A DNA stretch of 53,826 nt. It comes from Nitrospirota bacterium (GTDB taxonomy: Bacteria > Nitrospirota > UBA9217). Location: assembly GCA_029858565.1 (NCBI GenBank), contig JAOUEV010000019.1, forward strand, positions 1-53,826, written 5' to 3'. The stretch's first letter is position 1; each line of letters begins with the position of its first letter. The notes below the pieces were generated by a model, which worked only from the letters and a program-made list of their open reading frames with translations, was not told the origin of the DNA and made no database searches. The translations under genes and the position numbers were made by a program. Shown piece by piece: positions 2,995-40,165 of this stretch.

Positions 2995-4659
2995 TTATTT
3001 TGCCGCTGCCGTGCCGCCGCTCAACACAACAGTATAGAATTTACCTGCCGCCACGTCATTGATGCCCGCCACATCCCAGATCCGGACAGGACTCGGTTTA
3101 GGCGGCTGGTTCTTCAGGTCCTTCCCCCACACCCATATCGTACCGTCCCCCATGACCGCGAGAGAGTGATACATGCCCGCGGACACTTTCTTGATGTTCG
3201 CGAGTCCATCGATCCTGAAGGCTGAGCTTCCGTTCGCCGTCTTGTTCCCGAGCTGACTGAACTCATTCCCTCCCCAGGCCCACACACTGCCGTCAGCCTT
3301 AAGCGCAAGCGTGTGGTGAAGACCCGACTGAATATCCATGATGTCGGAGAGACCCTTGACCTGGACCGGTTCCGGGCGGTCGGTCCGCGTTCCGTCGCCC
3401 AGCATGCCATTGATGTTCCACCCCCATGCCCAGACCGTTTTGTCGGACTTTACCGCTACGGTATGATGAAGCCCGGCAGCCACTCCGACAACGCCTGATA
3501 ACGAGGAGACTCGGACCGGGCTGTTCCTGTCCTTCTGTGAGCCATCTCCGAGCTGTCCGTAGACGTTCCTTCCCCACGCCCAGACCGTACCATCAGACTT
3601 CACCGCTACGGTGTGATACATTCCCGCAGCGATCTTTACGATGTCGGATAGACCGCTTACCCTGACCGGAACGTTGCTGTCCTCGGAGTTTCCGTTGCCC
3701 AACTGTCCATAGGAGTTCCTTCCCCACGCCCAGACCGTACCGTTGGACTGCAATGCCACGGTGTGGTACATGCCGGCTGCAACATCGGTCGCCTTCAGCA
3801 GGTCCTTGGCCGCTACCGGAACCCGGCTGTCATCGGTCGTCCCGTTCCCCAGCTGGCCACGATTGTTCCGGCCCCAGGTCCAGACGGAACCATCCGCCTT
3901 GAGCGCGACCGCATGCTCCAGTCCTGCTGATACCTTCACCACGTTCTCGAGACCGCTTACCGGCAGGAAAGCGTCCCGGCCCCCGGTGGATCCGTCGCCC
4001 AGTTGGCCATACTCGTTCATACCGCCGGTCATGACCATGCTGGCCTTGGCAGTTGTCGGCATCCAGCTGCTCCGGACCGGCCAGAGGAAACGGTAATTGC
4101 AGTAGGATATGTAATCCATGATCATTTCACCCGAGGCCATGTCTACGATCCAGATGTAATCGATGATGTCGCGCCCGGTCGACGAGGACCAGTAGAAATG
4201 ATTCTGCACATTCGTGAACGGATGGCCGATCGGAAGTGCTGGATAGAATCTGGACCTGTCCGCCAGCGTCTCTATCTCATTGATCGTTGGAAGACGCCAG
4301 TCGGTGAAACCGAAATTCGGGCGCTTGCCGCTGTTCATCTCCTGCAGGAACTGCTTTGCCCCGTCATAGGGCAGCGGCAAGCTGCTTACATTGGCATCCT
4401 TGATCCATATAAGGCCAGTGTTCTTGTCGAGGATTGCCCCTTCATTCTCAGCGCCATATCGCGCGTTCATCTGCGCTGGAGCTTTGTCTCCCTTGCCCGG
4501 AGAGTCCCTGTCCGGGGCTGACGGATCTGACCCGGCAGTTTCCTTTGCCGCGGCCTTTTTGTCCTTTACGGAAGTTTTTTTCGCAGGAGCCGCCAGAACA
4601 TCCGGTTGGATCGACAGAACCACCAGGATCATCAAGAAACCAGCCAAGGCTTTTCGCAT
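2995..4659 (-). CDS. Secreted DUF1566 (Lcl C-terminal-like) plus RCC1-repeat beta-propeller protein
   Basis: D..TGLIW, GFTDWRLPTINE and YWSSS motifs, followed by about 7 AG..H.VA...DGTVWAWG.N..GQLG repeats. Confidence 0.85.
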   Translation of the reverse strand: MRKALAGFLMILVVLSIQPDVLAAPAKKTSVKDKKAAAKETAGSDPSAPDRDSPGKGDKAPAQMNARYGAENEGAILDKNTGLIWIKDANVSSLPLPYDGAKQFLQEMNSGKRPNFGFTDWRLPTINEIETLADRSRFYPALPIGHPFTNVQNHFYWSSSTGRDIIDYIWIVDMASGEMIMDYISYCNYRFLWPVRSSWMPTTAKASMVMTGGMNEYGQLGDGSTGGRDAFLPVSGLENVVKVSAGLEHAVALKADGSVWTWGRNNRGQLGNGTTDDSRVPVAAKDLLKATDVAAGMYHTVALQSNGTVWAWGRNSYGQLGNGNSEDSNVPVRVSGLSDIVKIAAGMYHTVAVKSDGTVWAWGRNVYGQLGDGSQKDRNSPVRVSSLSGVVGVAAGLHHTVAVKSDKTVWAWGWNINGMLGDGTRTDRPEPVQVKGLSDIMDIQSGLHHTLALKADGSVWAWGGNEFSQLGNKTANGSSAFRIDGLANIKKVSAGMYHSLAVMGDGTIWVWGKDLKNQPPKPSPVRIWDVAGINDVAAGKFYTVVLSGGTAAAK

Positions 4660-5035
4660 AGTATCCACAACCTTCCGTTGTCTCAATTATAATATCGAAC
4701 GCTGCTTTAAATTAAATACGTGGCCTATTGTAGCCAAAGCTATTTTGCTTGTAAAGTATTACTTGGCACGCGACTGCCGGCCTAATGTGATTTTGAGCTC
4801 ATTGGGAAGTAAGTCTCTCAAAATAATTCCACTTTACAATCAATGCAGGGTTATGCTACTCTACGTACGGACATCAGGAACATATTCACTATTGAGCGGT
4901 AATCAACAACAAATGAGCGTATCCGCTCATTATTTTTATGCATTCGTTTTCTAGATAACCTAAAAAAATCAATACGCTTTGTAATAGCGATACAATTTAT
5001 TTTGGTTTTTGAAGGTATAGTAATTGCATAAATCA

Positions 5036-5052
5036 AGCAAGAAAAGTGCCTG
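5036..5052 (-). promoter_or_regulatory. Candidate sigma54 (-24/-12) promoter
   Basis: CAGGCAC-TTTTC-TTGCT on the minus strand with GG-N10-GC spacing, in the AT-rich divergent intergenic region. Confidence 0.35.
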
Positions 5053-5143
5053 TTAATTCAATCCGCTTCGGATGAACGAAAACCTATCGCATTCATCCTG
5101 AAATACCAAATAATCGAACTACAACCGAAGGTAGGGGAATAAT

Positions 5144-6559
5144 ATGCTACGAAATGTCGGTCTTGTTGCGGCAATAGGGATCCTGGCAGTTATGATCGCT
5201 CTGGTTGCAGGGCCGGCGCAGATCGCGTCGGCTGAAGTGAACGATGACTATGCTCTCAAGATCTCCCTGGAGAACCAGATGGAGAGAAAGCTCAAGCAGG
5301 TCATTGTCGAGATCACTGGCACTGACAAGGTCGTGATCTTCGTGAACGCCGAGCTGGTATCCAAGGGCGGTGACCGGGGAAAGATCGAAAAGAAAGCCGA
5401 TGCTCTTGTCCTGCCGGGAGTTCCGGCGAAAAAAGAATTCGGGACCGGCCAGTCCTCGGAGTTGATGCTTCCCGGCTCGGGCAAATACTCGGTCAATAAG
5501 ATCATCCTTTCCATCTGGATCGACAGCAGCGTTCCGGGATCGATCGTCGACCTGATCCAGGACATCGCCAAGAACGTGATCGGTTTCAGCCAGACCCGGG
5601 GCGACCAGATCAACGTGAAAAAAGTGGATTTCGAGTCCAAGGGCTTCTTCCGCACCCTCTTCGCCTTCCCGAACTTCCTGTGGCTGATACTTACCATCGT
5701 CGGCGGTTTCATGCTCGTGACCGTCGGCATGTTCTTCATGGACCCGCTCAAGAAAGTGGTCCCGGCCTTGAAGGATATCGACTGGCCTCTTATTCGCGGC
5801 ACCGGCCAGGCAACGGCGGTCGAGCGAACAACGACCTTTGAGCGCGAGGTCATCTCCGGCGGTGCCGCTCAGCAGGCGGTTCAGTCGCTGGCGCCGCAGG
5901 ACGAAGGGCTTCCTTTCTCGTTCGTCCGCGAACGCGACATCCCCGGCCTGGCGTTCCTGTTAAAGGACCGGACGCCGCAGGACATTGCTATCGCCGTCAA
6001 TTATCTCGATCCAACGTTGTCAATGCGCCTGCTCGAGCGCTTTCCCAAGGAAAAGCAGGTCGAAGTTGCGATCGTTCTCGGTAAAGAAGAGATCAATCCG
6101 GAAAAGGTCACCGCGCTCGAGGAACTGGTCAAGAGCAAGCTGTCCTATGTCGTGGGCGGCGAGAACAAACTGGTCATGCTCCTGGATATGACCAATGAGG
6201 ACGTGCGCGACAAGGTCGTGAAGGCCATGGAGGCAAAGGACGGTCAGGCAGGATCACGTCTTAAGCAGCGGATCAAGTCCCTGGAAACGATCCTCGCCGA
6301 AATGCCGGCCCCGGGCATCCAGACCCTTTACCGCAACATCGACACCACGCTCTTTGCCCAGATACTCAAGTCGTCACCCGATGACATCCAGCAAAAGGTG
6401 ATTTCCTCGCTCAGCACCGGCGCCGCAGAACGGCTCAAAGAGGAGATGCAGCTCAGCCGTACCCTCTCCTTGACACGACTCGCCAGGGAGCGGCAGAACC
6501 TGATGGTCCTGGTCCGGAAGCTGATCAGCGAAGGCATTGTGGAGGTTGAGAACAGCTAA
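5144..6559 (+). CDS. FliF RBM3-like ring domain fused to FliG middle and C-terminal domains
   Basis: Signal peptide; LE..ME.KL...I..I.G...V...VNAEL and IAKNVIGFSQTRGDQINV (FliF C-terminal ring motif); one TM at about aa 178-198; then PFSF, PQDIA, GG linker and LSTGAAERLKEEM, VRKLISEGIV (FliG). Confidence 0.8.
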   Translation: MLRNVGLVAAIGILAVMIALVAGPAQIASAEVNDDYALKISLENQMERKLKQVIVEITGTDKVVIFVNAELVSKGGDRGKIEKKADALVLPGVPAKKEFGTGQSSELMLPGSGKYSVNKIILSIWIDSSVPGSIVDLIQDIAKNVIGFSQTRGDQINVKKVDFESKGFFRTLFAFPNFLWLILTIVGGFMLVTVGMFFMDPLKKVVPALKDIDWPLIRGTGQATAVERTTTFEREVISGGAAQQAVQSLAPQDEGLPFSFVRERDIPGLAFLLKDRTPQDIAIAVNYLDPTLSMRLLERFPKEKQVEVAIVLGKEEINPEKVTALEELVKSKLSYVVGGENKLVMLLDMTNEDVRDKVVKAMEAKDGQAGSRLKQRIKSLETILAEMPAPGIQTLYRNIDTTLFAQILKSSPDDIQQKVISSLSTGAAERLKEEMQLSRTLSLTRLARERQNLMVLVRKLISEGIVEVENS

Positions 6560-6560
6560 T

Positions 6561-7343
6561 ATGGCAAAAACAAACAGCCAAATAGATAAAATGACCATTA
6601 TCGGGCTCGTCGCGATCCTGCTGACGATCCTGTACGTCCTTGCCGTTGGGAACATCCTGCACATGCTCTTCAACCCGCTGGCGCTGATCATCGTATACGG
6701 CGGAACGTTCAGTGCGACGCTGATAGCCTACCCCTGGTCGGTCATCAAGGAGATCGCCCCGTCGCTCCGCATCATGCTGTTCCCGAGCAAGCATTCGGAA
6801 CAGGATATGGAGGAGATGATCGCCACCCTTGCAACCCTCGCTGAAAAGGCGCGCCGGGACGGCATTGAAAGCCTGCAGGCCGAGATCCCGAAGATCACCG
6901 ACAAATTCCTGGTTCACGGCGTCCAGATGCTGGTGGATGGCCTGGAACACGACGTCATCAAGGACAATCTGAGCCGGGAGATATTCTACACCCGTCACAA
7001 CCAGCAGAAGGTCTCCGGGGCCTTCCGGACCATGGCCACGGTCGCTCCCATCTTCGGACTGCTGGGCACACTCATGGGCATCGTTGACATGCTCAGGAAC
7101 CTGTCCAATCCGACCAGCATGGGCGCCGCCATGTCCAACGCGGTGACCGCAACGTTCTACGGCATCTTCTCGGCGAATGTGTTCATCCCGATCGCAACCA
7201 AGCTCACGGACCATAGTGAACGGGATATCATTAACAAGGAAATGATCGCCGAGGGCGTCATGGCGATCCAGGAAGGTGATGTTCCCCTGATCGTACGGAA
7301 GAAACTGACCGCCTTCATCATGGCGCACATGCGGCAGAAGTAA
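6561..7343 (+). CDS. motA: MotA/PomA-family stator A subunit
   Basis: GGTFSATL, ARRDGI, GVQMLVDG, APIFGLLGTLMG, TATFYG and EGVMAIQEG motifs. Confidence 0.9.
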   Translation: MAKTNSQIDKMTIIGLVAILLTILYVLAVGNILHMLFNPLALIIVYGGTFSATLIAYPWSVIKEIAPSLRIMLFPSKHSEQDMEEMIATLATLAEKARRDGIESLQAEIPKITDKFLVHGVQMLVDGLEHDVIKDNLSREIFYTRHNQQKVSGAFRTMATVAPIFGLLGTLMGIVDMLRNLSNPTSMGAAMSNAVTATFYGIFSANVFIPIATKLTDHSERDIINKEMIAEGVMAIQEGDVPLIVRKKLTAFIMAHMRQK

Positions 7344-7372
7344 TACCCCGATGCTCAAGTCCAGGACAGGTA

Positions 7373-8050
7373 ATGTCAGAAATAAGCGATAAAGATAAAG
7401 AGAGCGGCAACATCTGGTTGATCATCTTCTCGGATATCACGACCAACCTCATGCTGTTCTTTCTCATGCTCTTTGCCATGACCCGCATGACCTCTGCGGA
7501 CAAGCAACTCCTGGTGGCCGGCATGGAAAGCACGGTCATCAATGAAGCTTCCCGCAAGCAGGTAGAGATGGAGCGCCAGGCAAAGAAGCAGCGTGAGGAA
7601 GAGGCCATCAAGCGTCTTCAGCAGGCAGTCAGCGAAGGCCGGCTTGCCGGAAAAACCGCTATCAATGTCACCGACAAATCGGTCAATATCGCCTTGAATC
7701 CGGAGTCATTCTTTTCCATCGGAAGCGCCAAGCTCAACCCCGGAACGATCAATGTGCTTGAGGACCTGGTGACGCTCATAGAATCCTTTCCCAATGATAT
7801 CATCATTGAAGGTCATACGGACCCGACGCCGGTGCGGGGAGGCGCTTATCGCTCGAACTGGGAACTCTCGATCGCACGGGCTGTCGGCGTCGTGAACTTC
7901 TTCACTGCATCAGGGCTGAATCCCAAACAGCTTGTAGCCGCAGGCTACGGCGAGTTCCATCCCGCTTATGCAAACGATACGGAAGCGAACCGCGCCCGGA
8001 ACAGGCGCATCGAGATCACGCTGGTCCGCCAGCCGGGAGAGATGCTGTGA
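7373..8050 (+). CDS. motB: MotB-family stator B subunit with OmpA-like domain; catalytic Asp present
   Basis: WLIIFSDITTNLMLFF TM helix; EGHTD, SNWELSIARA, GYGEFHP, NRRIEI. Confidence 0.9.
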   Translation: MSEISDKDKESGNIWLIIFSDITTNLMLFFLMLFAMTRMTSADKQLLVAGMESTVINEASRKQVEMERQAKKQREEEAIKRLQQAVSEGRLAGKTAINVTDKSVNIALNPESFFSIGSAKLNPGTINVLEDLVTLIESFPNDIIIEGHTDPTPVRGGAYRSNWELSIARAVGVVNFFTASGLNPKQLVAAGYGEFHPAYANDTEANRARNRRIEITLVRQPGEML

Positions 8051-8715
8051 TATCGGCGCTCCAAAGATTCGTCCGGTATACCGAAGAGCACATGGAAGAG
8101 ACCGAGCTCTGGATGCTGCCCTACAGCACCCTGATGCTCACCCTGGTCATCCTGTTCATCATGTTCTACGCCTTTTCCCAATCCCAGTCCGTCGAGTACG
8201 AGACCGCCCTGTCCGACCTTGCCTCGACCAATCCCGACGATCCACGTGTCAAACAGCTGAAGCAGGAGATCGCCCTTGCACAGAATATCCGCGACTTCAT
8301 ACAGAAGAACAATCTTGCCGGCAAGATCCAGGTAATCATGACCCCCCACTCCATCAAGATCAAGATGGAGAGCCTCGCGCTGTTCGACAGCGGAAGCGCC
8401 GATCTGAAACAGGACAGCAGGATGTTTCTTGACCATTTGCACGAGCAGCTCAAACCGCTGAGCAACCGTGTCATTGCCGAGGGTCACACCGACAATGTGC
8501 CGATCCACACTGCCCAGTTCAACTCGAACTGGGAGCTTTCTTCGGCCCGGGCCTTCAGCGTCATTTACTATTTCATCAACAAGGGGCTCGCGCCGGAACG
8601 CCTGGTCGCGCATGGGCTCGGTGAATACCGGCCTGCGTTCTCGAACGAGTCCGAAACCGACCGGGCGAAGAACCGCCGGATCGAGATCACGATTGTAAGA
8701 GGAGTCTCCGGGTGA
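8047..8715 (+). CDS. motB: Second MotB-family protein; Thr at the catalytic Asp position
   Basis: WMLPYSTLMLTL TM helix; EGHTD, SNWELSSARA, NRRIEI; GTGA overlap with the preceding motB. Confidence 0.85.
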   Translation: MISALQRFVRYTEEHMEETELWMLPYSTLMLTLVILFIMFYAFSQSQSVEYETALSDLASTNPDDPRVKQLKQEIALAQNIRDFIQKNNLAGKIQVIMTPHSIKIKMESLALFDSGSADLKQDSRMFLDHLHEQLKPLSNRVIAEGHTDNVPIHTAQFNSNWELSSARAFSVIYYFINKGLAPERLVAHGLGEYRPAFSNESETDRAKNRRIEITIVRGVSG

Positions 8716-10007
8716 AAAAGGCCGTACTTATCCTGTCGTGCATCCTGGTCCTCACCGGCAGCGCGGAAGCGCTGACCCCCAAGCAGGTAGAGCGCGTCGA
8801 TCAGCTCAAAAAGGATGTCGTATCCCTTTTTCGTGAGCGCAAGTTCGACCAGGCAGTGCCGCTGCTGAATGAGGTGCTTTCCATCGATCCTCTGGACAAG
8901 ACCGCGACCCGCTACCTTGCTCTGGCCCGCCAGCAGAGCATGGAAACCTATTGCAAGGATGCGGCAGACGCTTTCCAGAACGAGGACTATGCCAAGGCCA
9001 TTGAGACCTGGGACCGCCTGCTCAAAATGAATCCCGACGACCGGCGCTTCGCGAATCTCATCGAGACAACGAAGAATCTCATTTCGGACAAGGTCACCGG
9101 CGAAATGTTCGAACGGGCAGAGAAATTCGTGAATGAAGGCGACTACAAGGCCGCGGTCAATGAGCTGGAGAAGATCCTCGCCGTCCGTCCCTACGACACA
9201 CGGGCTCGCGCGCTTTACAACAACGCGAAAAGCAATGTCGTCGATGCCCGCACGAAGAAACATTACGACCAGGCCGAGACGTACATGAAGGAAAAACAGT
9301 ACGACCGCGCGATCGAAGAATGGAAGCGAGTGCTGGAAATCGACAATACCCAGGAGGCGGCTTCCCGCTATATCGCCACCGCCGTCAGAGAAAAGATGGG
9401 GAGTCTCTATGGCGACGCGCGGCAGGCCTACGAGCGGGGCGACTATCTTACGGCACGGGACCTTTACAACAGGATCCTTGCCGACAATCCCACGGACCTT
9501 GACGTGAAAACGATCGTTTCCCGCCTCGACGACGTGGCCAAGGTCGCCCTGAAGATCGATGATAAAAGCCAGGCCGGAGACATGATGCGGAAGGCTATGG
9601 CCCTGTATATAGCTGTTGACGGCAACCGCAAGGCCTCAATGGCGGCAGCCTGGTATGCTTTCCAGCTTAACCCGAATTCGCTGACCATCGCCGTCAAGGG
9701 ATTTCTCGAACTGAAATATGCATCGATCCTGAGCACCATGGAGGCACCGGTCGGCGATATGAACATCATCGATCAGTACCTTTTTGCGGCCCTGAACAGG
9801 ATCTACGAAGGACGATACGACATCGCCATTCAGGCCTGCACCATTGTCATCGAACTGCATCCGAACAACGTGCTGGCATGGAAACGGCTCGGTTCAGGCT
9901 ATTATGCGATCGGCAAGAAGGATAAAGCGAGAGATGCATGGGAGCGCGCACTCAAGATCACACCCGATGATGCCGAGCTTAAGCAGTTCCTGCGTCAGAC
10001 AAAATGA
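8712..10007 (+). CDS. Secreted tetratricopeptide-repeat protein
   Basis: Signal peptide (AEA); multiple A...W..VL.I.P-type TPR helical pairs; GTGA overlap with the second motB. Confidence 0.85.
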   Translation: MKKAVLILSCILVLTGSAEALTPKQVERVDQLKKDVVSLFRERKFDQAVPLLNEVLSIDPLDKTATRYLALARQQSMETYCKDAADAFQNEDYAKAIETWDRLLKMNPDDRRFANLIETTKNLISDKVTGEMFERAEKFVNEGDYKAAVNELEKILAVRPYDTRARALYNNAKSNVVDARTKKHYDQAETYMKEKQYDRAIEEWKRVLEIDNTQEAASRYIATAVREKMGSLYGDARQAYERGDYLTARDLYNRILADNPTDLDVKTIVSRLDDVAKVALKIDDKSQAGDMMRKAMALYIAVDGNRKASMAAAWYAFQLNPNSLTIAVKGFLELKYASILSTMEAPVGDMNIIDQYLFAALNRIYEGRYDIAIQACTIVIELHPNNVLAWKRLGSGYYAIGKKDKARDAWERALKITPDDAELKQFLRQTK

Positions 10008-10045
10008 TCGTAACCTTTATTGTCATACCTTGAACGGACGGGATC

Positions 10046-11521
10046 ATGAATACGAAGATACTTATAACGACGATCAACATGACCATTCTCTGCATCATTG
10101 CAGCATTATGCGCTGCACCGACCCCGGCCCTTGCCGCCCAGGACCAGGAGTGCGGTAAATGCCACGACGCAATGAGCAGGGGCAAAGTCCTGCACCCGGC
10201 GCTCAAGAAGGGCTGCACTGCCTGTCATACCGCATCCCACCCCGGGACGCCGGGCAAGGACAAGGCGGTCCTTTCGCTTCGTTCCGAGCAGCCCGACCTT
10301 TGTTACGACTGTCACAGCCGGAACCTGTTCCTTCGGAGATACCAGCACAAGCCCGCGGTCTCGGGAAAATGCACGGCCTGTCACAATCCGCATTCTTCGA
10401 ACAACATGTATCTGCTCACCACGTCAATGCCCGATCTGTGCTGGAAGTGCCACGACAAAAAGATCGTCACGAAACAAACGACCCATTTCCCCTCGACTGC
10501 CGGCCTCTGCTCGGCCTGCCATGACGCGCACAGCTCCGACAGCCATGAGAAACTGTTGACGTCCAACATGCCGGAATTATGCTATAAATGCCATGACAAG
10601 GCCAGCATCGGCGGCATGCAGAACGTCCACCAGCCGGTCATCTCAGGGAAATGTACCGCCTGCCACAATCCTCATTCGCAGGTGGCGAAGAACCTCCTGG
10701 CCGCAGACGGCGCGGCACTCTGCTATACCTGTCACGATAAGAAGACCTTTACCGACGGCATCGCCCACACGCCCGTGGAACAGGGCGGCTGTCTTGGCTG
10801 CCACGCCCCCCATCAATCGAGGTCCGAGAAACTGCTTCTTGCGAAGCAGCCTGACCTCTGTTTCCTCTGCCATGAGAAGAAGTCGTTCACCGGCGAAAAA
10901 TACGGCCACAAGCCCGTTACCGGCGGTCGTTGCACGACCTGTCACCGTCCGCATGCCGCCAAGGCAAAGAATCTGCTTACAAAATCGACTCCAGGCATCT
11001 GCTTTGAATGCCATATGACCGAGGAGCTCGGCGGACGGGAAAAACACGGACCCTTCAAGATCGGCATGTGCAACAGCTGTCATAAATCCCACCAGAGCAA
11101 CACGTCGAAACTGCTGATCGGAAAGACCCCTGACCTCTGTTTCACCTGCCACAGCACGGAGGATTTCAAGAACAAGGTGGTCCACAAACCGGTCGCAGAC
11201 GGAAAATGCTACGACTGTCACGGGATCCATACGACCCCCTTCAAGAACCTGAGCAAAGCGGATGGCAATGAATTGTGCCGAAAATGCCACCAGGACGTGT
11301 TCCGCGGCTCCCACCCGAATACGCAGCTGCCTGCAGACCTGCGATCAAAGAAACGGGGCACGACCACCGGTCATCCCCTGGATAAGGTGGATGATCCGAA
11401 ACGACCGGGTAAAAGTATGGCGTGTATTAGCTGCCATAACCCGCATAGCGCTGAATGGAAAGGCCTGTTCCGCTATAAAGCGGAGAAACCCCAGGACCTT
11501 TGTCAGCACTGCCACAGATAG
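10046..11521 (+). CDS. 19-heme periplasmic cytochrome c with paired-CXXCH repeats
   Basis: Signal peptide (ALA); 19 CxxCH counted; regular two-heme repeat of about 47 aa. Confidence 0.9.
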   Translation: MNTKILITTINMTILCIIAALCAAPTPALAAQDQECGKCHDAMSRGKVLHPALKKGCTACHTASHPGTPGKDKAVLSLRSEQPDLCYDCHSRNLFLRRYQHKPAVSGKCTACHNPHSSNNMYLLTTSMPDLCWKCHDKKIVTKQTTHFPSTAGLCSACHDAHSSDSHEKLLTSNMPELCYKCHDKASIGGMQNVHQPVISGKCTACHNPHSQVAKNLLAADGAALCYTCHDKKTFTDGIAHTPVEQGGCLGCHAPHQSRSEKLLLAKQPDLCFLCHEKKSFTGEKYGHKPVTGGRCTTCHRPHAAKAKNLLTKSTPGICFECHMTEELGGREKHGPFKIGMCNSCHKSHQSNTSKLLIGKTPDLCFTCHSTEDFKNKVVHKPVADGKCYDCHGIHTTPFKNLSKADGNELCRKCHQDVFRGSHPNTQLPADLRSKKRGTTTGHPLDKVDDPKRPGKSMACISCHNPHSAEWKGLFRYKAEKPQDLCQHCHR

Positions 11522-11559
11522 TTCGGCATGATGGTTGCTCAGGAACAGCCAATCTGAGG

Positions 11560-11587
11560 TTGACTCCCGGGCTGAAATAGGTATAAT
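11560..11587 (+). promoter_or_regulatory. Sigma70-like promoter for the c7-type cytochrome pair
   Basis: TTGACT-N16-TATAAT, 40 nt upstream of the ATG, which has an AAGGAG RBS. Confidence 0.55.
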
Positions 11588-11627
11588 GCATGAGAAATCA
11601 GTTTGTTTGCCGGAAGGAGAACACGAG

Positions 11628-12419
11628 ATGAGATTCAAGGCTTTGATTGTCCTGCTGGTCGTTGCCATCACCCTGCTCGCTTCCATTGCCCTTGCCACGA
11701 ACTTTGGCACCAAGAAACGGATGCCCCGCCCCCAGGAGTTCGGCAATGTGATCATCAACAATTACTCGGAGAAGAACAATATCGCGCCGGTGGTGTTCAA
11801 GCATTGGATACACCGGACCAAGTATACCTGCAGGGTCTGTCACGTGGACGTCGGTTTTGCCATGGAAGCGGGCGGCAGCGATATCAAGGAAGAGGATAAC
11901 AAGAACGGACTGTATTGCGGCTCCTGCCATAACGGCAAGGAAGCTTTCGCGGCCACGGCACGGGAAAAGCTCGTCACCGAGGTCCAGAATTGCGATCGGT
12001 GCCATTCCTACGGCAAAGAGGTCAAGAACCAGAAGGATTTCAATGAATATCTCAAGGACTTCCCCCAGGCCAGGTTCGGCAACCGGATCGACTGGATGAA
12101 GGCCGAGGCTACGGGCAGGATCAAGCTCAAAGACCTGGTCGAGGGAATTTCGATGAAGCGCCAGGCCATCGCAGCGCCCAAGGACTTTGATATCAAGTCA
12201 ACGATCCTCGGCATGCCGGACATCATCTTCTCGCACAAGATCCATGCGGAGATCAACGGATGCGAGCTCTGTCATCCCGAAGTGTTCGGTGCCAAAAAAG
12301 GTGTGACCAAGTACTCCATGCAGGACATCTTTGCCGGGAAGTACTGCGGTTCCTGTCATGCCAAGGTCGCGTTTCCGTTCTATGACTGCCAGCTGTGCCA
12401 TCTGAAAGAGGTGTATTGA
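11628..12419 (+). CDS. Hexaheme cytochrome with two c7-type triheme domains
   Basis: PVVFKHWIH...CRVCH, CGSCH, CDRCH and IIFSH..H...CELCH, CGSCH, CQLCH; signal peptide. Confidence 0.9.
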   Translation: MRFKALIVLLVVAITLLASIALATNFGTKKRMPRPQEFGNVIINNYSEKNNIAPVVFKHWIHRTKYTCRVCHVDVGFAMEAGGSDIKEEDNKNGLYCGSCHNGKEAFAATAREKLVTEVQNCDRCHSYGKEVKNQKDFNEYLKDFPQARFGNRIDWMKAEATGRIKLKDLVEGISMKRQAIAAPKDFDIKSTILGMPDIIFSHKIHAEINGCELCHPEVFGAKKGVTKYSMQDIFAGKYCGSCHAKVAFPFYDCQLCHLKEVY

Positions 12420-12446
12420 TCCGATCAGCCTGATGGAACATCCTGT

Positions 12447-13187
12447 ATGCACAGTGCGGTACTTTATCTCGCGATCCTTATGGCCGGCAGCAACTTCGAC
12501 GGGGTGTGGAAATTCCCTCCTCCACCCCCGCCGGAGCAGTACGGGAATGTTCTGATCACTCGTCTTACATCCAAGAGCACGCACCCGCCCGTGGCTTTTT
12601 CTCATTGGCTTCACCGGCGTTATTTCACCTGCAGGGTATGCCATTTCGAGCTTGGTTTCGCGCTCAAAACAAATACCACCGAGATCACGGAAGCAAAGAT
12701 CCGCAAAGGCGAGTATTGCGGGGCCTGTCACAATGATCGGGTCGCCTTTGGCGTGAGCGAAGGCACCTGTACCATGTGCCATACCGGAAAGGTCAGTTCC
12801 TCGGATGGACGTTTTTCAGAACTGAAAGACCTTCCGAAATCACGGTATGGGGACGGTCTCAACTGGGTCAAGGCACTCAGAAAGAACTTTATCCAGCCAA
12901 AGGCCAGTATCCTCGACAGTAAGTATGAATCCATCCCCTTTGACAAGAACCTGCGGCTCGAGCCTGAGTGGGGTCTGATCAAGACAAAAGCGATCTTTCC
13001 CCATGCCAAGCATACGGAGTGGCTCGACTGCGCTGACTGTCATCCCGACATCTTTAACATCCAAAAAAAGGGCACCCGGCACTTTCGCATGGAATATATG
13101 CTCGAAGGAAAGTTCTGCGGCGCCTGCCATCTCACTGTGGCATTCCCCCTCCAGGACTGCAAACGCTGCCATCCTGACCTTGACTGA
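12447..13187 (+). CDS. Hexaheme c7-type cytochrome, paralogue of the upstream gene
   Basis: Six CxxCH in the same layout; shared YG/FG-NV.I and WV/MKA motifs. Confidence 0.9.
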   Translation: MHSAVLYLAILMAGSNFDGVWKFPPPPPPEQYGNVLITRLTSKSTHPPVAFSHWLHRRYFTCRVCHFELGFALKTNTTEITEAKIRKGEYCGACHNDRVAFGVSEGTCTMCHTGKVSSSDGRFSELKDLPKSRYGDGLNWVKALRKNFIQPKASILDSKYESIPFDKNLRLEPEWGLIKTKAIFPHAKHTEWLDCADCHPDIFNIQKKGTRHFRMEYMLEGKFCGACHLTVAFPLQDCKRCHPDLD

Positions 13188-13421
13188 CATCCTCTCCTGC
13201 CTCGCGCTATAATTCTGTCAGCTGAGATTATTCATCCGCAAGGGCCAACAGCAAAGTCTCGCTGAAGGCGCCCTGCAAGCTGCACGGAAATTATCTCTGA
13301 TGGTAGTATCGCGGGGCCGGCAAGTACCGGGACAGCAAGAGGGGGATATGTGGCCGGCATACCGGCAGGGTAAAATGAATAAGGACGGTACTTCCCGATG
13401 GAAGGCCACGCTCGATGAGGA

Positions 13422-14789
13422 TCAGATCAATCCGAATCGTTTCATCCTGCGGCGGAATGCGTCCCGGGGCATTTTTAGCAGCTGTGATGCCCTGGTCTGG
13501 TTCCCGCCTGCCATTTCGAGCGCTTTCTTGACCAGGGCATTCTCCACTTCCTCTATAGATATGCCGCTTTCCGGTATCGTCAGGCAATCCAGCGAAACGG
13601 GTGTTAGCGAACTATCCATGGGCGCGGCATGCTGTTCAAGAATTTCCGGTGACAGATGCTCCGGCATGATCTCTTTATCGATCTCAAAGATCATGGCTCG
13701 CTCGATCACATTCTTAAGTTCACGGACATTGCCGGGCCACGGATAGGACAGAAATACCTGTTCGGCCTCTTTGGATATGCCCTGAACGCTTTTATGGCAT
13801 TCTCTGTTGAAGTGATCTGTAAAATGTCGGGCCAGCAAAAGTATGTCACGTCCACGGTCACGAAGCGGAGGAAGCATGATCGGGACGACCTGCAGCCGAT
13901 AATATAGGTCCTTGCGAAAACGCCCTTCGTTCATGGCGCGGGAAAGATCCTGGTTCGTGGCAGATATCACACGAACATCCACTTTGATATCCTTGACACC
14001 GCCGATACGTCGAAAGGATTTTTCTTCAAGTATCCGCAGCAGCTTTGCCTGCATGCTGATATCCATATCGCCGATCTCATCCAGGAACACGGTCCCGCCA
14101 TCGGCCAGTTCGAAAAGTCCCTTCTTTGCAGCTTTTGCATCGGTGAATGCACCCTTTTCATGACCCATCAACTCGCTTTCCAGCAGCGTCAACGGCAGTG
14201 CAGCGCAGTTGATAGCCATAAAAGGTCTTTCTGCGCGCAGACTTCCCGAATGGACCGCTTTTGCGACCAACTCCTTGCCTGTTCCACTTTCTCCCTGGAT
14301 AAGCACGGTCGTTGCGTCACTCTTCGCGATCTTCGCGATAAGGTCCTTCACCCGGAGCATCATGTCCGTCTCTCCGATGATGGCGTCGACTTTCCCCCTG
14401 AGCTGCTTGACCTGGGACCTGAGGGAACCCGCTTCGAGGGCCTTTCGGATAACGAAGGTTATCTCCTCCAGATTAAAGGGCTTGCTGATATAGTCATAGG
14501 CGCCAAGCTTCATCGCCTTCACAGCGGTCTCCACCAGGCCATAGGCCGTGATCATAATGACCATGATGCCCCGCTCAGGCACATTCAATTTTTCCAGCAG
14601 TTCGAGACCGGTCATTTCAGGCAGCCTGTTATCCAGGAGGAGCAGATCAGGAGCTTCCTCATTGATAAGCTGGAGCCCTTTTTCCGCCGAGTCAGCGGTC
14701 ACTACTTCGTACCCCTCCCGCACAAGATGCTGCTCGAGTGTCCACCGAATTAGCTTTTCATCATCAATAACAAGGATCTTATATGCCAT
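13422..14789 (-). CDS. NtrC-family sigma54-dependent response regulator
   Basis: Receiver domain; GESGTGKE; GAFTDA; FLDEIG; WPGNVREL; Fis-type HTH. Confidence 0.95.
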   Translation of the reverse strand: MAYKILVIDDEKLIRWTLEQHLVREGYEVVTADSAEKGLQLINEEAPDLLLLDNRLPEMTGLELLEKLNVPERGIMVIMITAYGLVETAVKAMKLGAYDYISKPFNLEEITFVIRKALEAGSLRSQVKQLRGKVDAIIGETDMMLRVKDLIAKIAKSDATTVLIQGESGTGKELVAKAVHSGSLRAERPFMAINCAALPLTLLESELMGHEKGAFTDAKAAKKGLFELADGGTVFLDEIGDMDISMQAKLLRILEEKSFRRIGGVKDIKVDVRVISATNQDLSRAMNEGRFRKDLYYRLQVVPIMLPPLRDRGRDILLLARHFTDHFNRECHKSVQGISKEAEQVFLSYPWPGNVRELKNVIERAMIFEIDKEIMPEHLSPEILEQHAAPMDSSLTPVSLDCLTIPESGISIEEVENALVKKALEMAGGNQTRASQLLKMPRDAFRRRMKRFGLI

Positions 14790-14791
14790 GC

Positions 14792-16282
14792 TTAAATACT
14801 CCCTGTCACAGATTCCTGTTTATTTGGGGAAGGAAGCACGATCGTGAACACGGAACCTTTTCCCGGTGCACTCTGCACGCTGATCTCACCATTATGCTGT
14901 TCAACAATACGCTGGGTGATCGACAGCCCCAGTCCGGTGCCCTGCTGCCGCGTCGTGAAGAAGGGGCTGAAGATCCTTCCCAGGTTTTCCTGATTGATGC
15001 CTTCACCGGAATCGGAGAGGCCGATCCGGATCGCGCCGCCGCCATCCTTGGTCACATCCACATTCGTTTCAACAATAAACCGTCCGCCCTGGGGCATTGC
15101 CTTGATCGCGTTCAAGGCGATGTTGAGCAGTGCCTGTTGCATCAGATCAGGGTCCAGGACCAGCCAGGGCAGCCCAGCGGTCATTTTTCTCTCAGACGTT
15201 ATACCATGCTTGGCGAACTGGGGCGCCAGAAAGTCGAGCAGTCGGCTCAGCAGTTCGTTCACATCCACGAGGGTCATTTTTGGCTCAGGAGGCCGCGCGA
15301 ACGAAAGCAGGTTCCTTACAGCCTTATCCATGCGCTCGACCTGGGAAAGCACTTCATCCAGTACCGCCCGTTTGGGATCACCGATGGGGATATCACCCTT
15401 CAGGACCTGGATCACCCCGGCAATACCCGCAAGGGGATTCTTGATCTCATGGGCAATTCCTGCCGCCATTTCACCGATAGAGGCCAGTCGGTCCGCCCGT
15501 TTCATCTGCTCATAGTGATACCGTTCCACGCGGCGGCGTGCCCGTTCGAGCTTTGTCAGCAGGGAATTAAAAGCCTCCGCAAGCCTGCCGATGTCATCCT
15601 TGCTCTTTACCTGCGCTCGGGCTTCAAGCCCGCGCTCGGCCCGCTCCATTGTATCAATGAGCTCCTGGATGGGCGTGGTCACATAGCGCGTCAGAAAAAG
15701 CGACAAAGATATTGCCAGGGTAGCCGTGATGCCGAACGCCCACAGGATCATGGTCTTGCTGAGCTCCCCGACCTTTTCCTGCGTCTGGGTCATGGACACG
15801 TCCACCGCAAGAACGCCGTTCAATTTCACCGTACTGCCGTGGCATGAATAACACTGCTCGGAATTCTCGATCGGGAACAAGACCGAGAAGATCCCTTCCT
15901 CGCGGCGCTTGATCGGTCGTTTGAACTTCCCTTCGAGGAACCACTTCTGGGTCGCCCCGTCAATGCGTCTGCCGATCTGTCCGCGCTTGGAGGCCTTCAA
16001 GATCACCCCATTGGGGCTGAATATCCTCAGGCCGCGGATATTATGATAGCCGCCCACAGCCTCCAGGATATGCTGGACCTCTCGGCTCTTGCCTGCGACC
16101 ATGGCATTTGAGAGGCTTTTCTCGATCGTATTGGAAATAATGAGGACATTGTCCTCGAGCGCCGACTCCATCTGTCCCTGCTGATAACGGATATTGATCC
16201 ACGTACCAATGCCGATGATCACCGCAAGGATCGCGGAAACGGAAAGAATGATCTTGCTTCTGAGGCTTGAAATGAGGATCAC
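14792..16282 (-). CDS. Sensor histidine kinase with periplasmic CxxCH motif and HAMP domain
   Basis: Two TMs flanking a domain containing CYSCH; HAMP; AHEIKNPL H-box; N, G1, F and G2 boxes. Confidence 0.92.
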
Positions 16283-32408: not shown

Positions 32409-33569
32409 TTATTTAAGGTTCATGGGCTTCAGCACCAGCGTATACAGCTTCCATCGATAGCGTCTCCAATCTGGAATGCCGTTGGCAGCAAAGTCGAAGT
32501 CACGACCCACGGTAAGCGCTGCGGGAGGAGGGGGAGCACCGACCCGCTCGATAGGCCGGGGATGGTCATATGTCGAATCACGCATGCCTTCCTGCGCCAG
32601 GATGTAAATCTGAACTTCCCGAATATTCCTGGTCGCCTTCGCATCCCACGCGGCCATGGCGTCAGGGGCCGCCCCCTGGTGGATAGTCTCGGCGGTGCCA
32701 TCGCTGTTATCATCACTCACAACCGCCACCTGCATGTCAGCGACGCAGTCGAGCAAGGGCAGTGGCGCATTGAAACCTGGCCCTTCCTGGCTCACTACAG
32801 CTTTATACAAGATCCCTGTACCCTGCGCACAGTTCGCAGGCAGCGATGGGGAAGAGTTGATATAAAAATCAGCCCGGTTAAAAGGCATTTTCAGAGCAGG
32901 TTTGTTATTTACATTAGGATCAACCACGAACATGAAGCTGAATTCCTGCCTTCTCGCATTAAATTGTGATCTGTTTGCGACAGTCGCAGAGAACTGACCG
33001 TTAGTGAGCGGCACCAAAATCCTCGCATCTCTGCTCCCAAGTTTATCCTTAACCATTTCCGGAGAGATGACCACTACCAGATCAGTATCCAAAAGATTCT
33101 CAGTAGGCGGATTCCAGAGATATGGCTGGTTGTCGGATTTAAAATAGGTCCATTTATCCGTTCGCTCGCTCATGGTGACATTAACTGCCTTGACCGCGAG
33201 CCGGTCCGATCCCTTCCATGCCGTGTTGTCGCCGATAACGAGGGCTCGCGGAGGATTAAAGGTGGTCCCGGTAACGTCGCTCAATGGTCCCGCCACCGTG
33301 TCGGCCGGATCCACTTCATTATACGCGATGGCTGTGCCTTCCCGCCAGTCCCAGAACAGGCCGTATCCCGCGTTCTCGACGTCCCGGCGCATCAGCTCCA
33401 GGCCAACGATGCCCTCGATGTTGCTCATGGTGATCTCGCTCTGCTGTTTATAATCCCTCAGCACTTGCACGAACATCTGCGAAGCGCCGACGATCACAAA
33501 GCCGAAGATGGCCATGACCACCAGCAGTTCGATCATGCTGAATCCCGTGTTTTTTTTGAGCGAAGCCAT
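32409..33569 (-). CDS. pilW: Type IV minor pilin, PilW-like
   Basis: TG|FSMIELLVVMAI; LMRRDVENAGY. Confidence 0.8.
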   Translation of the reverse strand: MASLKKNTGFSMIELLVVMAIFGFVIVGASQMFVQVLRDYKQQSEITMSNIEGIVGLELMRRDVENAGYGLFWDWREGTAIAYNEVDPADTVAGPLSDVTGTTFNPPRALVIGDNTAWKGSDRLAVKAVNVTMSERTDKWTYFKSDNQPYLWNPPTENLLDTDLVVVISPEMVKDKLGSRDARILVPLTNGQFSATVANRSQFNARRQEFSFMFVVDPNVNNKPALKMPFNRADFYINSSPSLPANCAQGTGILYKAVVSQEGPGFNAPLPLLDCVADMQVAVVSDDNSDGTAETIHQGAAPDAMAAWDAKATRNIREVQIYILAQEGMRDSTYDHPRPIERVGAPPPPAALTVGRDFDFAANGIPDWRRYRWKLYTLVLKPMNLK

Positions 33570-34508: not shown

Positions 34509-37500
34509 CTATCGTTCCTTGATATGGACAACTTTACGCGCTGCCCGGGGTGATGCCATGATCGACAATCCCTGCGCCGACGGCGGAACGCCGGTGATGC
34601 CCGCCGATTTTCTGCCGCCGCTCTCGACAAATGCCGCAGAAAGATCGATCTGTTCGATGCTTCCTGTGGAAACCTGGATTATTGCCTTGCCTTTGAGCAA
34701 TCCGATGGGTGACGCGCCGGTATCGTACTTCATCGCCCAGAGATGGGTCTTACCACCCATCTGGCAGGCATCGTTGTAAGGCCGGAAGCTCGTGAAATAG
34801 ACAATGCCGGTCGAACTGGCAAAGGGGTCGGTGATCGACCGTTCTCCGCGATATTCCTTGGTCTCTCCGGTCGTAGAATCGGTGTATGAACCCGCCTTGT
34901 CCATATTGATATACCATCCAGGGTAGTCCGTGGGAGGAGTTGCATTCTTCAGGTCCTCTGCCGCGTTCACATCGGTTGTTACGTTAATGAGCCCCGATGG
35001 TGTACCGCAGGCTGTAGTGCCGATCGGATCCCCGCAAAAGAGCGTGGAATCATTTGTTCCGCAGGTTGTTTTGAATCCGCTTTTATCCGCAATCAGGCAT
35101 CTCTCCTTCAAGGCAAAGAGCTGGCGGCCATTGGGCGGGTCGGCATCATCAGCCTCGCCGCCCTTGTCAAAGAAGTACCTGCCCGAACCGAAATAGAGCC
35201 ACAGGTTATTATTCTTGTCAGTCAACTTGGCAATCGCTGAGGTAAGAGGCCCCGTACCTCGCATCACATAGGACAAATCCCAGTTACTCGGATTCGTATT
35301 CTCATGGGTCACGAGCCTGACCAGTCCGCCAATATTGTATTCACCTGTACTGAACTGTTTGTACACATAGGGCACATAGACCACATCATCTGAGTAGTCC
35401 AGGTCCACATCATGCGTACCGTTCAGCAGGGAGCCAACGAAAGCGTTCGGTATCAGAAGATCGCCTGTGGCGGAGCTCTCGCCTTTCCATGTGATGCCTG
35501 AGGATGGCCCCAGTTCCAGATCGAAAATGGCGAGGCGCAGCTGCTGGTCAGACTTGGCGAGATACTGCGCGCTCCCCTTGTCGATCGGACCGGTGGGTCC
35601 GGAGCCGAAGACAACAAACCACTTCCCGTTCAGGAGCGGAGTCTGCGTGCCCCCGGCGGTTTTGGTGCTGATGCGCACCACTGCAGGCCCGCTTGTAGAG
35701 AATCCGAGCTTGTTCATATTGGCTGCCGCCGGGTCGGTCCCGTCGAATTCCCATTTCAAGACTGGCACGTCCTGGTTCGTGATATCAAGAGCAAAATAGG
35801 ACGAGTATCCAAGACCTTTTGTCGCTGTCGCATCGTCGGGATCGACCATCGGTGTCTTTACGCAATTGGAACAGGTGTCAGAAGGCGCCCTGCATGCTCC
35901 TCCCAGCCTCATGCCGCCGATCAGGAAAGTCTTCCAGGAGTTCGAGTTCTTGAAACAGAACGAATAATCGCTCGATGCAGCACAACCAACTGTGCTCGCG
36001 TCAAAGATCACCGGGGTCAGATCAACGCCGTACACATGGCAGTAGTTGGGATCCATCATGTACCTGAGATAAGGCAGCATGTTCTTGGGAATGAATGCCC
36101 AGGCTTCCTCGCCCAGTTTCACCGTCTTCTTACAGGTCTCCCCGCCGGGGCAGTGAGCATCATCACTACACAGAACATAGCTGTAGTTGCCCGAGCAAAC
36201 ACTGTTCGTAAGCTTTGCCATCTCGTACTTGGTATCCTGTAGCGGCCATTTCAGCTGCAGCAGGCCGAGCCGGAAGGCATGGAGCATGCCATCGTTCGAG
36301 CCCACATAGACCATCCCCCTGCCCTTGTAGTTGTACTTTGTCACATAGTACTTGCTACTCACCGGCTCGGACTGTAAGGGACGCAGTCCCGGAGGACCAT
36401 AGGTGTTCTCGATGTATCCGGGCGGGCTGCCGTTGTACACCAGATGATAATCGTTCAAGGGCTGCCAGGACGCTATCCTCGGCGTGGAATTCAGCACGTC
36501 GCCGAGCTTCCAGGTGCCCGTCTGGAGCACGCCGCCGTCCAGTACACTTGCCGTCCGCCGCCGAAAGGAAGTGTAGGTATAGGGTTGGCCGTTGGAAAGA
36601 GTGACCGTAGGCTTGTCATTGCCCAGTGTCCAGTCGATGATTGCGTAGGAATAGTTGTCCGTTGTTGTCTGCAGATATTTCCTCAATGAGGTTTTCGCTC
36701 CGGTATTGAATGGCGTGAGCGAAGTCCCGTTTGTAGTCGTCCATACGGTCCGTGTTGTCTGGCTGAGAAGACGGGTTCCTGCCTCCCAGAGGTTCATAAC
36801 CTTTTCCACTTTGTCCGTAGCCGGAGTGGGCTGTCCTTCGTTGACAATGCTTCCGTCGCCGTTGCTGTCATTGTAACGCCGCAGCATGGCGGCCTGCTTG
36901 GCCTCATCAAAAAAGAACTGCGTAATATAGTCGTGATGGGAGCCGTCCGTTTTGAGATATAGGACTTTATCACTTTCATCTTCACGAATATTGCTGTTCG
37001 AGAACAGCGGGTCCACATAGTACCACATGTTCGAAAGCCTGCCCATCCAGGAGACCCGGTAGGGATTGGTCGGTTTGGAAGGATTCTCGAATTCCTTGAC
37101 CGGATAGAACACCGCCTGCACCAGGTTCGCGCCGCTGCCTTCGCCCGACGCCAGCACCGACGCGGCGGTACCAGAAACCGTGTCCGCAGAGATCGAATCA
37201 AAGAATACCTGCAGCTCCTGCTGCAGCTTTACAGGGTTGGTCGCTTTCGCCATCGTTGATCCGCCGTTCGTTGCTGTTTTGCTCAGAAGCGTCTCGGAAT
37301 TGCAATCGCCGGTCCCGTTGTTCGATGATCCGGTGAACGCGACGAAGGTGTTGATCTTCTTGTACCGTGAGATACCCGTGGGCGCCGGCGACGACTTCGA
37401 GCCCAGGGCGAACGACGTGATGTCGTATTTGTTCGCCAGATACGACAGGTCGTCGAGGTTCTGGCTTCCTGAATAGAACTGCTCCGTTGCAGTGTCAGCG

Positions 37501-40070: not shown

Positions 40071-40165
40071 AGCCCTGATTCCTCCGCGCATTCTTTCCGC
40101 TCCTGTTGAATGCCTTTATATATACCACAACCCGCAGATTTTCATGAAGAAATCCACGGAAAACA

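Follow-up and report, generated by a model that had tools for sequence, protein, structure and literature searches.

A five-gene cassette at positions 5144 to 10007 of a 53,826-nucleotide contig of a Nitrospirota bacterium (JAOUEV010000019.1; this whole stretch is called the window here) encodes a natural fusion of FliF and FliG parts, a MotA, two MotB paralogues and a TPR protein. The set is conserved in two phyla, occurs in genomes that encode no flagellum, and carries a rotor-stator interface in which the facing helices of both proteins have changed jointly. We read it as a free-standing, autonomous, non-switching, ion-driven ring-and-stator machine which derives from the flagellar rotor-stator pair and works without a flagellum, and consider this reading probable (roughly 60%). 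Judged by its sequences, the cassette would represent flagellar rotor-stator parts reused as an independent machine that is widespread and has signatures of its own. An earlier note on this DNA had proposed a self-contained rotor-stator machine of this kind, and the proposal is supported: FliF and FliG relatives were found by structure, the genes recur intact outside any flagellar locus, and they do not supply the rotor of a flagellum encoded elsewhere. That a ring forms, turns and passes work to periplasmic partners is what we infer.

A FliF-FliG fusion encoded with its own stator

The cassette comprises the following genes:

5144-6559, + strand: FliF-FliG fusion gene; 471 residues; stop codon TAA
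6561-7343, + strand: MotA gene; ATG start; 260 residues; Pfam MotA_N and MotA_ExbB
7373-8050, + strand: MotB1 gene; Pfam MotB_plug and OmpA; transmembrane helix with channel aspartate D21
8047-8715, + strand: MotB2 gene; Pfam MotB_plug and OmpA; threonine at the position of the channel aspartate
8712-10007, + strand: TPR protein gene; 431 residues; Pfam TPR families; signal-peptide-like N-terminus

The tight coupling of these genes, described previously, was borne out: the open reading frames, the gaps of 1 nucleotide (nt) between fusion and MotA and of 29 nt between MotA and MotB1, and the GTGA overlaps at the MotB1/MotB2 and MotB2/TPR junctions all match the description.

Pfam, a structure model, Foldseek and direct sequence comparison together lead us to read the fusion as FliF RBM3 with a short collar-type insertion and the following transmembrane helix, joined directly to FliG_M and FliG_C. 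Pfam matches were obtained for YscJ_FliF_C at residues 115-163 (E 5.9e-6, 27.2 bits, cut-off 23.8), FliG_M at residues 269-337 (E 2.5e-8) and FliG_C at residues 361-467 (E 2.9e-15), and longer relatives of the fusion cover the entire YscJ_FliF_C profile (positions 1-147). No Pfam match was found in the fusion for FliG_N, the domain that binds the FliF C-terminus and in the flagellum holds FliG on FliF, and none for YscJ_FliF (PF01514; FliF RBM1/RBM2) in the fusion or anywhere in the host genome. The AlphaFold2 model, calculated with an alignment of 73 family representatives, has a mean predicted local distance difference test (pLDDT) score of 83.2, compared with 70.2 for an earlier 17-sequence model. 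It shows an N-terminal signal or transmembrane helix (residues 2-21), a helix-strand-insertion-strand-helix-strand unit (34-161, insertion 75-113) which is RBM3-like with a collar-type insertion, a long membrane helix (177-210, with the transmembrane segment at about 176-200), a disordered linker (219-253), and helical FliG middle and C-terminal domains (about 257-467, modelled 263-462). When the model was compared with the PDB using Foldseek, ranks 1-13 were FliG chains (E 2.8e-11 to 3.8e-8) and ranks 14-31 exclusively FliF chains (E 1.2e-4 to 2e-3), the latter consisting of solved Salmonella and Vibrio chains (MS-ring, S-ring and RBM3/collar) together with an integrative FliF-YlxF model. For S-ring-only chains, template modelling scores normalised to the target were 0.45-0.58. 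The structural kinship with FliF RBM3 and FliG on which the earlier proposal depended is thus present. By sequence, Thermotoga FliG_MC (1lkv) aligns with the fusion from its PFSF motif onward (E 3.8e-18).

The stator proteins were characterized in the same way. The best solved relatives of the cassette MotA are flagellar MotA and PomA (E 1.3e-41 to 1.8e-23), while the NCBIfam models tolQ (E 6.9e-4, 19.4 bits, cut-off 221) and exbB (E 4.2e-3, 16.9 bits, cut-off 206.2) score far lower. MotB1 has the channel aspartate (D32 in E. coli) in all 22 orthologues, which come from two phyla. MotB2 lacks it in 20 of 22: all 14 Nitrospirota rows, the window's included, have threonine, and the eight Elusimicrobiota rows have asparagine (5), serine (1) or aspartate (2). 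Both paralogues keep an OmpA-type domain with a conserved NRRIE stretch. MotB2 is therefore a conserved paralogue that would in most cases be unable to transport ions; it may sit in the channel together with MotB1, or act solely as a peptidoglycan anchor. The rotor-like fusion and the full stator set named in the earlier note were both found, with the refinement that the fusion lacks FliF RBM1/RBM2 and FliG_N, and MotB2 the channel aspartate.

A jointly changed interface, conserved in two phyla and independent of flagella

The strongest sequence evidence that the cassette MotA works on the FliG domain of the fusion comes from the rotor-stator interface, numbered here as in the E. coli K-12 genes. 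According to the accessible part of PMC12505986, the E. coli interface contains charge pairs between MotA R90 and FliG D288/D289 and between MotA E98 and FliG R281. The first pair is retained in the cassette: MotA position 90 is arginine in 17 of 17 loci and arginine (1) or lysine (7) in eight further Elusimicrobiota cassettes, and FliG position 289 is glutamate in 16 of 16 loci, with glutamate or glutamine at 288. The second pair is gone, E98 being replaced in 25 of 25 cassettes (by glutamine, alanine or serine in the first 17, by glutamine in seven and leucine in one of the Elusimicrobiota) and FliG position 281 being glycine in 16 of 16. Rotor and stator have thus changed jointly in two phyla, with the basic-90/acidic-289 pair kept on both proteins and the E98/R281 pair dropped on both. 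MotA P173 and P222 and FliG Lys264 are also kept (each 16/16), and FliG position 297 is serine in 14 of 16. As a control, seven flagellar MotA paralogues were taken from five related genomes, and all seven have Arg90 as well as Glu98; canonical FliG keeps EHPQ and Arg281 in 16 of 16 and arginine or lysine at 297 in 15 of 16. One helical turn away the cassette has additional charges, namely MotA Glu95 (16 of 17 and 6 of 8) and FliG Arg285 (all nine rows shown), which may form a re-registered pair. Equivalents of E125, H126 and R160 in the FliM-binding EHPQR motif are each replaced in 15 of 16 loci, which fits the absence of FliM and FliN.

A word-indexed protein search yielded 86 relatives of the fusion, most of about 470 residues and at 28-100% identity, with Nitrospirota or Nitrospiraceae as the named organisms; a profile search of the same collection returned essentially the same 86 proteins plus one Elusimicrobia entry. 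Scanning species-representative genomes gave 16 loci, of which 14 carry a label beginning with Nitrospir, one is 'Bacterium BMS3Bbin05' and one is from Elusimicrobia. The order fusion-MotA-MotB1-MotB2-TPR was found by tblastn in 14 of these 16 loci, the two remaining contigs ending inside MotA, and it holds even at 42-44% fusion identity (L016 and L018). Eight Elusimicrobiota loci with longer flanks all show the order fusion-MotA-MotB-MotB, followed in seven by a TPR homologue. The synteny that the earlier note suggested looking for thus recurs, including in genomes without FlhA. An exhaustive profile search at E <= 1e-30 gave 308 clusters (50% identity), the best 150 of which are mostly full-length fusions of 430-800 residues, with about two dozen shorter fragments. 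When ten distant representatives were looked up by cluster, three had a name. The family is present in 55 of the 151 Elusimicrobiota genomes sampled, and most of these have two to five matches. A language-model look-up returned look-alike clusters, most commonly from Elusimicrobiota, Cloacimonadota, Bdellovibrionota, Bacteroidota and Thermodesulfobacteriota, which are candidate leads only. The search for a cultured carrier found no named isolate, the named matches all being metagenome-assembled genomes.

The family can be recognized by its own signatures. Across the 73 aligned representatives, the collar insertion has LPG, the ring domain ends with RGD, PFSF precedes FliG_M, the GG linker (338-339) is nearly invariant, and the torque helix contains Gly426 and Glu434. 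In a maximum-likelihood tree of FliG_MC (quick search, LG+G4, unrooted), a single branch with a Shimodaira-Hasegawa-like approximate likelihood ratio of 100 separates 81 fusion-type rows from 17 canonical rows, the canonical sample being narrow (15 Nitrospirota, 1 Elusimicrobiota and E. coli). This split shows the fusions to be a single old family rather than local derivatives of recent date; which form came first is not shown by the tree.

The host genome (G000; 3.92 Mb in 144 contigs, completeness 100%, contamination 0.5%) contains no match for FHIPEP/FlhA, Flagellin_N, YscJ_FliF, Flg_bb_rod, FliM or FliMN_C, each of which gave matches in four flagellated control genomes. Its sole FliG_C match is the fusion gene. 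There are three MotA_ExbB matches, and the two besides the cassette MotA lie on other contigs. The lack of fliM/N, export gate, rod and flagellin genes noted earlier for the surroundings of the cassette therefore holds for the whole genome, che genes being outside the search. Among 64 genomes of the same family, 14 carry the full-length fusion and 17 carry FlhA, and both occur together only in two (G005 and G245). In these two, canonical FliG, FlhA and a flagellar MotA lie on contigs other than that of the cassette; the flagellar MotA is 28-33% identical to the cassette MotA, and their cassette MotA is 87% identical to that of the window. Of the 12 genomes that have the fusion but no FlhA, seven reach a completeness of 90% or more. 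One carrier whose chromosome is a single contig (G403, the same as G256 by coordinates; rated 96% complete) contains neither FlhA nor canonical FliG.

These data bear on the view that the cassette is a decaying remnant of a lost flagellar locus, or supplies FliF, FliG and MotAB to a flagellum encoded elsewhere. Such a view could draw on database entries that annotate family members as 'flagellar motor switch protein FliG', on the presence of flagellated genomes within the same family (17 of 64), and on apparent gene breaks in two loci (G239/L015 and G248). Against it, frames are intact and gene order is identical in two phyla at 29-79% identity, the fusions have their own conserved motifs and their own clade, no further flagellar gene family was found in a genome rated 100% complete, and G005 and G245 have a complete flagellar locus in addition to, and separate from, the cassette. 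Both forms of this view are contradicted by the intact two-phylum synteny, the separate clade of the FliG part and the missing flagellar genes of a complete genome, and we reject them as highly improbable. The cassette is accordingly found as more than a flagellar fragment, and the fusion is not the sole FliF/FliG of a complete flagellum, since the host genome lacks gate, rod, filament and FliM/N and the two flagellated carriers have separate loci.

Possible modes of action and relation to known systems

In the machine that we propose, the fusion would assemble as an inner-membrane ring by homology of its RBM3 domain, whose solved relatives are all rings of 33-35 subunits, and FliG_M and FliG_C would line the cytoplasmic face of this ring. 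MotA and MotB1 would form a peptidoglycan-anchored ion-driven unit that pushes on the FliG_C helix, and MotB2 would be an accessory without the channel aspartate. With the FliM-binding motif gone and FliM, FliN and the export gate missing (nor would there be CheY input), the ring would turn, or be strained, in one direction only and carry no rod. The secreted TPR protein and, in Nitrospirota, a propeller protein encoded by the adjacent RCC1/Lcl_C gene would be periplasmic partners which scaffold the machine or take up its output. Output candidates are therefore these two proteins and, in other lineages, outer-membrane-linked TPR fusions.

A number of observations weigh against this proposal. 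The ring and its rotation are predictions from sequence and a model, and a ring without rod or shaft has no obvious way of doing work. The collar insertion is short (about 40 residues) and modelled with pLDDT below 50 at residues 83-89 and 99-110. The cassette proteins are recognized by the NCBIfam equivalogs of fliG, fliF, motA and motB, yet with scores far under the cut-offs (TIGR00207 for fliG at profile positions 99-327 only, 74.9 against 226.7; MotA 187.1 against 340), which indicates relatives of the flagellar proteins and not ordinary members. A MotB2 without aspartate does not fit the canonical MotA5B2 cycle if it is seated in the channel. Three charged residues important in E. coli (MotA E98, FliG R281 and R297) are missing, so that the interface may work differently or not at all. 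Eight further paralogue loci in Elusimicrobiota have MotA and MotB beside the fusion in only two cases and none within about 7 kb in the other six, and the stator is thus not always encoded alongside. Finally, several cassette genes appear split or frameshifted on long contigs in L015 (the same place as G239:C6 by coordinates) and G248:C15, with breaks in the fusion at residue 374/375, in MotA and in the TPR gene, and in G239 also in-frame TAA and TGA codons; this may be real decay or may stem from assembly consensus errors.

The TPR gene is a constant partner in these loci. It comes after MotB2 in all 14 complete related loci and in seven of eight Elusimicrobiota loci, and what the phyla share of its protein is the C-terminal half (about 185-431). 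A homologue of the TPR module lies near the fusion in all eight Elusimicrobiota paralogue loci, including the six without MotAB, whose fusions are forms of about 610-680 residues. That the TPR gene stays with the fusion even where MotAB is not adjacent points to the ring as its partner rather than the stator. Cytoplasmic C-terminal TPR repeats are present in three library fusions of this longer class and in the copy of one paralogue locus, L068. In L068 the cassette-type TPR module is itself fused to a UPF0164 domain, which we take to be an outer-membrane beta-barrel family; this hints that the TPR protein links the ring towards the outer membrane. A complex prediction from alignments, combining TPR residues 21-431 with the periplasmic parts of the fusion (31-172), MotB1 (56-225) and MotB2 (60-222), scored 0.03 against a mark of 0.32 and, being without controls, speaks neither for nor against binding. 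L068 (G438:C31, 277-15086) encodes the UPF0164-TPR fusion, then a 660-residue fusion protein with a cytoplasmic TPR tail, and from there onward a 1196-residue Glu/Lys-rich frame that matches no Pfam family and large proteins, one of which combines fn3 with a CHU_C type IX secretion signal domain.

An arrangement of this kind might also act without rotation. Ion flow through MotA/MotB could pull or reshape the FliG domains of a small oligomer, as ExbBD does with TonB and TolQR with TolA, and the conformational change could be relayed by the membrane helix to the periplasmic domain and from there to TPR and outer-membrane partners, with no need for a continuous ring or for turning. In their types the parts resemble those of Tol-Pal: a channel of the MotA family, a B subunit similar to TolR, a peptidoglycan binder of the OmpA type, a TPR protein and a beta-propeller. 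In line with this, the TPR protein matches tol_pal_ybgF weakly (E 3.6e-10, 40.5 bits, cut-off 90.1), the UPF0164-TPR fusion would suit a connection that spans the envelope, and the short collar is modelled with low confidence. However, the periplasmic domain is of the RBM3 kind known from large rings, MotA is of the flagellar type with MotA_N and matches TolQ/ExbB only at E 7e-4 and 4e-3, and both FliG_M and FliG_C are kept, the domains which chain FliG subunits around the flagellar ring. We regard a non-rotary energiser as a less likely explanation than the rotary machine, though the likeliest of the alternatives.

A role as a surface-motility motor, with the ring as a pinion that moves envelope or surface proteins in gliding or in support of type IV pili, appears rather unlikely. 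Speculation on gliding or twitching is found in the accessible part of an Elusimicrobiota preprint (10.1101/2022.07.08.499144), and the very large proteins flanking the fusion in L068, one of them with a CHU_C domain, would be consistent with it. The combination of one A and two B subunits also recalls the AglRQS gliding motor, which has two B-type subunits. On the other hand, the conserved Nitrospirota neighbourhood contains no gliding or pilus gene, and the pilin-like gene of the window is 22 kb away.

A bolder form of the rotary reading, which we put forward tentatively as possible but short of probable, is a rotary engine standing alone in the membrane, in which dedicated MotA/MotB units spin a ring of some tens of FliF(RBM3)-FliG chains. 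This engine would be either the surviving sister of a pre-flagellar motor from before the coupling to secretion or an ancient spin-off, and the periplasmic face of its ring would drive TPR-linked partners reaching the outer membrane. If true, this would constitute a third route beside Ton and Tol for ion-motive energy across the envelope, and the first with a rotor ring. Independent of such scenarios, the cassette is a defined and conserved set of five to six genes with its own sequence signatures and a co-varied rotor-stator interface in at least two phyla. Should it rotate, it would be the smallest natural rotor-stator pair known and a target for structural work, for single-molecule torque studies without a switch complex and for tests of flagellar-origin scenarios. 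Should it not, it would show the reuse of FliG and MotAB as an envelope energiser. Either outcome would correct the automatic flagellar annotation of these genes.

Compared with the flagellar motor core (FliF, FliG, MotA5B2), the cassette has homologous FliF RBM3/collar, FliG_M and FliG_C domains, a MotA with MotA_N and a MotB with plug, aspartate and OmpA domain, and it keeps the MotA basic-90/FliG acidic-289 pair and MotA P173/P222. Unlike the flagellar core, it has no export gate, rod, hook, filament, FliM/N, FliF RBM1-2 or FliG_N, has lost EHPQR and, on both sides, E98/R281, joins FliF and FliG in one chain, and adds a second MotB without aspartate and a constant TPR partner gene. In the periplasmic stator scaffolds of complex flagellar motors, namely the Vibrio MotX/MotY T-ring and Campylobacter PflA/PflB, a TPR- or Sel1-type repeat protein and an OmpA-like peptidoglycan binder accompany the stator. 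By analogy with these, MotB2 and the TPR protein would fit such roles, whereas the association of the cassette TPR gene with the fusion in the absence of adjacent MotAB points to the ring. Tol-Pal, ExbBD-TonB and AglRQS resemble the cassette in that an ion-driven 5:2-type channel powers envelope work without a flagellum; they differ in that the cassette has a flagellar-type A subunit, whose target would be a FliG domain instead of a TonB/TolA-type protein.

FliF-FliG fusions as such have precedents. The natural fusion of Chlamydiaceae, as described in the accessible part of Bergeron 2016 (PMC4768692), has about 330 residues, with RBM2, one RBM of unclear kinship and the FliG middle domain only, lacks a SpoIIIAG-like RBM3, and is discussed with the injectisome and not with MotAB. 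Going by that description, it is likewise a natural join of a shortened FliF to part of FliG in bacteria not thought to be flagellated, whereas the cassette fusion keeps RBM3, FliG_M and FliG_C with the torque helix, and an adjacent stator. The same part of this paper cites engineered FliF-FliG fusions of Salmonella and Vibrio, and a Vibrio fusion chain is contained in PDB 8z4d/8z4g. This solved chain matches our query in its FliG part at E 2.2e-10 and in its S-ring at E 1e-3 to 2.1e-3. Engineered fusions demonstrate that a covalent FliF-FliG chain can build a ring, but they are 945-residue full-length joins inside a complete flagellum, in contrast to the natural minimal 471-residue form without a flagellum.

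In the accessible parts of the literature we found no published description of the cassette; an earlier listing in supplementary tables, e.g. of PMC12505986 or PMC12199754, is possible. The accessible parts of PMC8780430 and PMC13277936 hold nothing relevant to it. The earlier note had not recognized a described system here, and this stands in that no paper describing the cassette was found, with the qualification that the genes have been noticed in print in passing, without analysis: the accessible preprint text (10.1101/2022.07.08.499144) reports numerous homologues of motAB, flbD and fliG, with roles that are unclear, in Elusimicrobiota that lack flagellar structural genes. A 2025 MotAB phylogeny separates flagellar from generic stators, and its accessible part makes no mention of a FliG-linked non-flagellar stator group (PMC12505986).

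Flanking genes and minor observations

The following features surround the cassette:

993-2390, - strand: multihaem c-type cytochrome gene, upstream of the RCC1/Lcl_C gene
2995-4686, - strand: RCC1/Lcl_C gene; Pfam WD40_RLD/RCC1 and Lcl_C; predicted secreted RCC1-repeat beta-propeller; divergent, immediate upstream neighbour
5014-5028, + strand: tentative sigma-54-like -24/-12 element; about 115 nt before the fusion gene; differs from a relaxed consensus at one position
10046-11521, 11535-12419 and 12447-13187, + strand: three multihaem c-type cytochrome genes; Pfam Paired_CXXCH_1 and Cytochrome_C7; 38 nt behind the TPR gene
13422-14789, - strand: sigma-54-dependent response regulator gene (Pfam); convergent to the cassette
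14792-16282, - strand: HAMP histidine kinase gene (Pfam); convergent to the cassette

In Nitrospirota the RCC1/Lcl_C gene belongs to the unit. Upstream sequence is available for 13 related loci, and in 12 of them the gene is located there on the opposite strand. Of the 14 fusion-bearing family genomes, 13 have a full-length orthologue, compared with zero of the 50 remaining genomes; in the 14th, the contig with the cassette begins within the fusion gene. The sole match in G143 is a 244-residue repeat stretch inside a 2182-residue frame.

The cytochrome flanks mentioned in the earlier note are real, with the addition that the nearest upstream neighbour is the RCC1/Lcl_C gene. Paired CXXCH motifs are abundant in two of the four cytochromes, and the other two are paralogues resembling cytochrome c7. 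It is conceivable that the machine serves them, for instance by placing or turning over periplasmic or outer-surface electron carriers. Three of the genes follow the TPR gene with no terminator-like site between, cytochromes are kept behind the cassette in 11 of 14 related loci, and the upstream cytochrome is kept in six related loci at 62-75% identity. They are, however, absent behind the cassette in L013 and L015, represented in L018 by a 74-residue partial match only, and no homologue was detected in any of the eight Elusimicrobiota cassettes with the window's cytochromes as tblastn queries. The cytochromes are thus not part of the conserved core but a lineage-specific accessory or mere neighbour. 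Since they are missing from the cassette in another phylum, a cytochrome-linked function is a minor and very unlikely alternative.

Sigma-54-type regulation of the cassette by the response regulator/kinase pair is suggested by the neighbourhood. The response regulator gene comes next in 11 related loci, among them L013 and L015, where it stands immediately behind the TPR gene, and a sigma-54-like element was found upstream in four of 13 regions (the window counted) compared with about 0.015 expected per 450 nt. A general scan of 4500-13600 was not above shuffled sequence, with eight terminator-like sites against 9.3 expected and nine promoter-like sites against 5.4 (standard deviation 2.3), and defines no operon boundary. 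A look-up of sequencing runs listed seven DNA data sets and no RNA data set. The 457-nt divergent intergenic region contains a perfect 8-bp hairpin at 4912-4931 with a terminator-like score on both strands.

Three further observations were made. Two non-identical cassette copies, with 73% and 71% fusion identity to that of the window, lie on different contigs of one metagenome-assembled genome (L010 and L017; G233:C192 and C233) and may reflect a duplication or a strain mix. In one Elusimicrobiota cassette (L032; G429:C19), a small PD-(D/E)XK nuclease-family gene is located between the two MotB genes at 7132-7506. The window also contains, within 32409-33569 and 34509-40091 (both - strand), a pilin-like gene with an N-terminal methylation motif and a 1860-residue open reading frame without any Pfam match.

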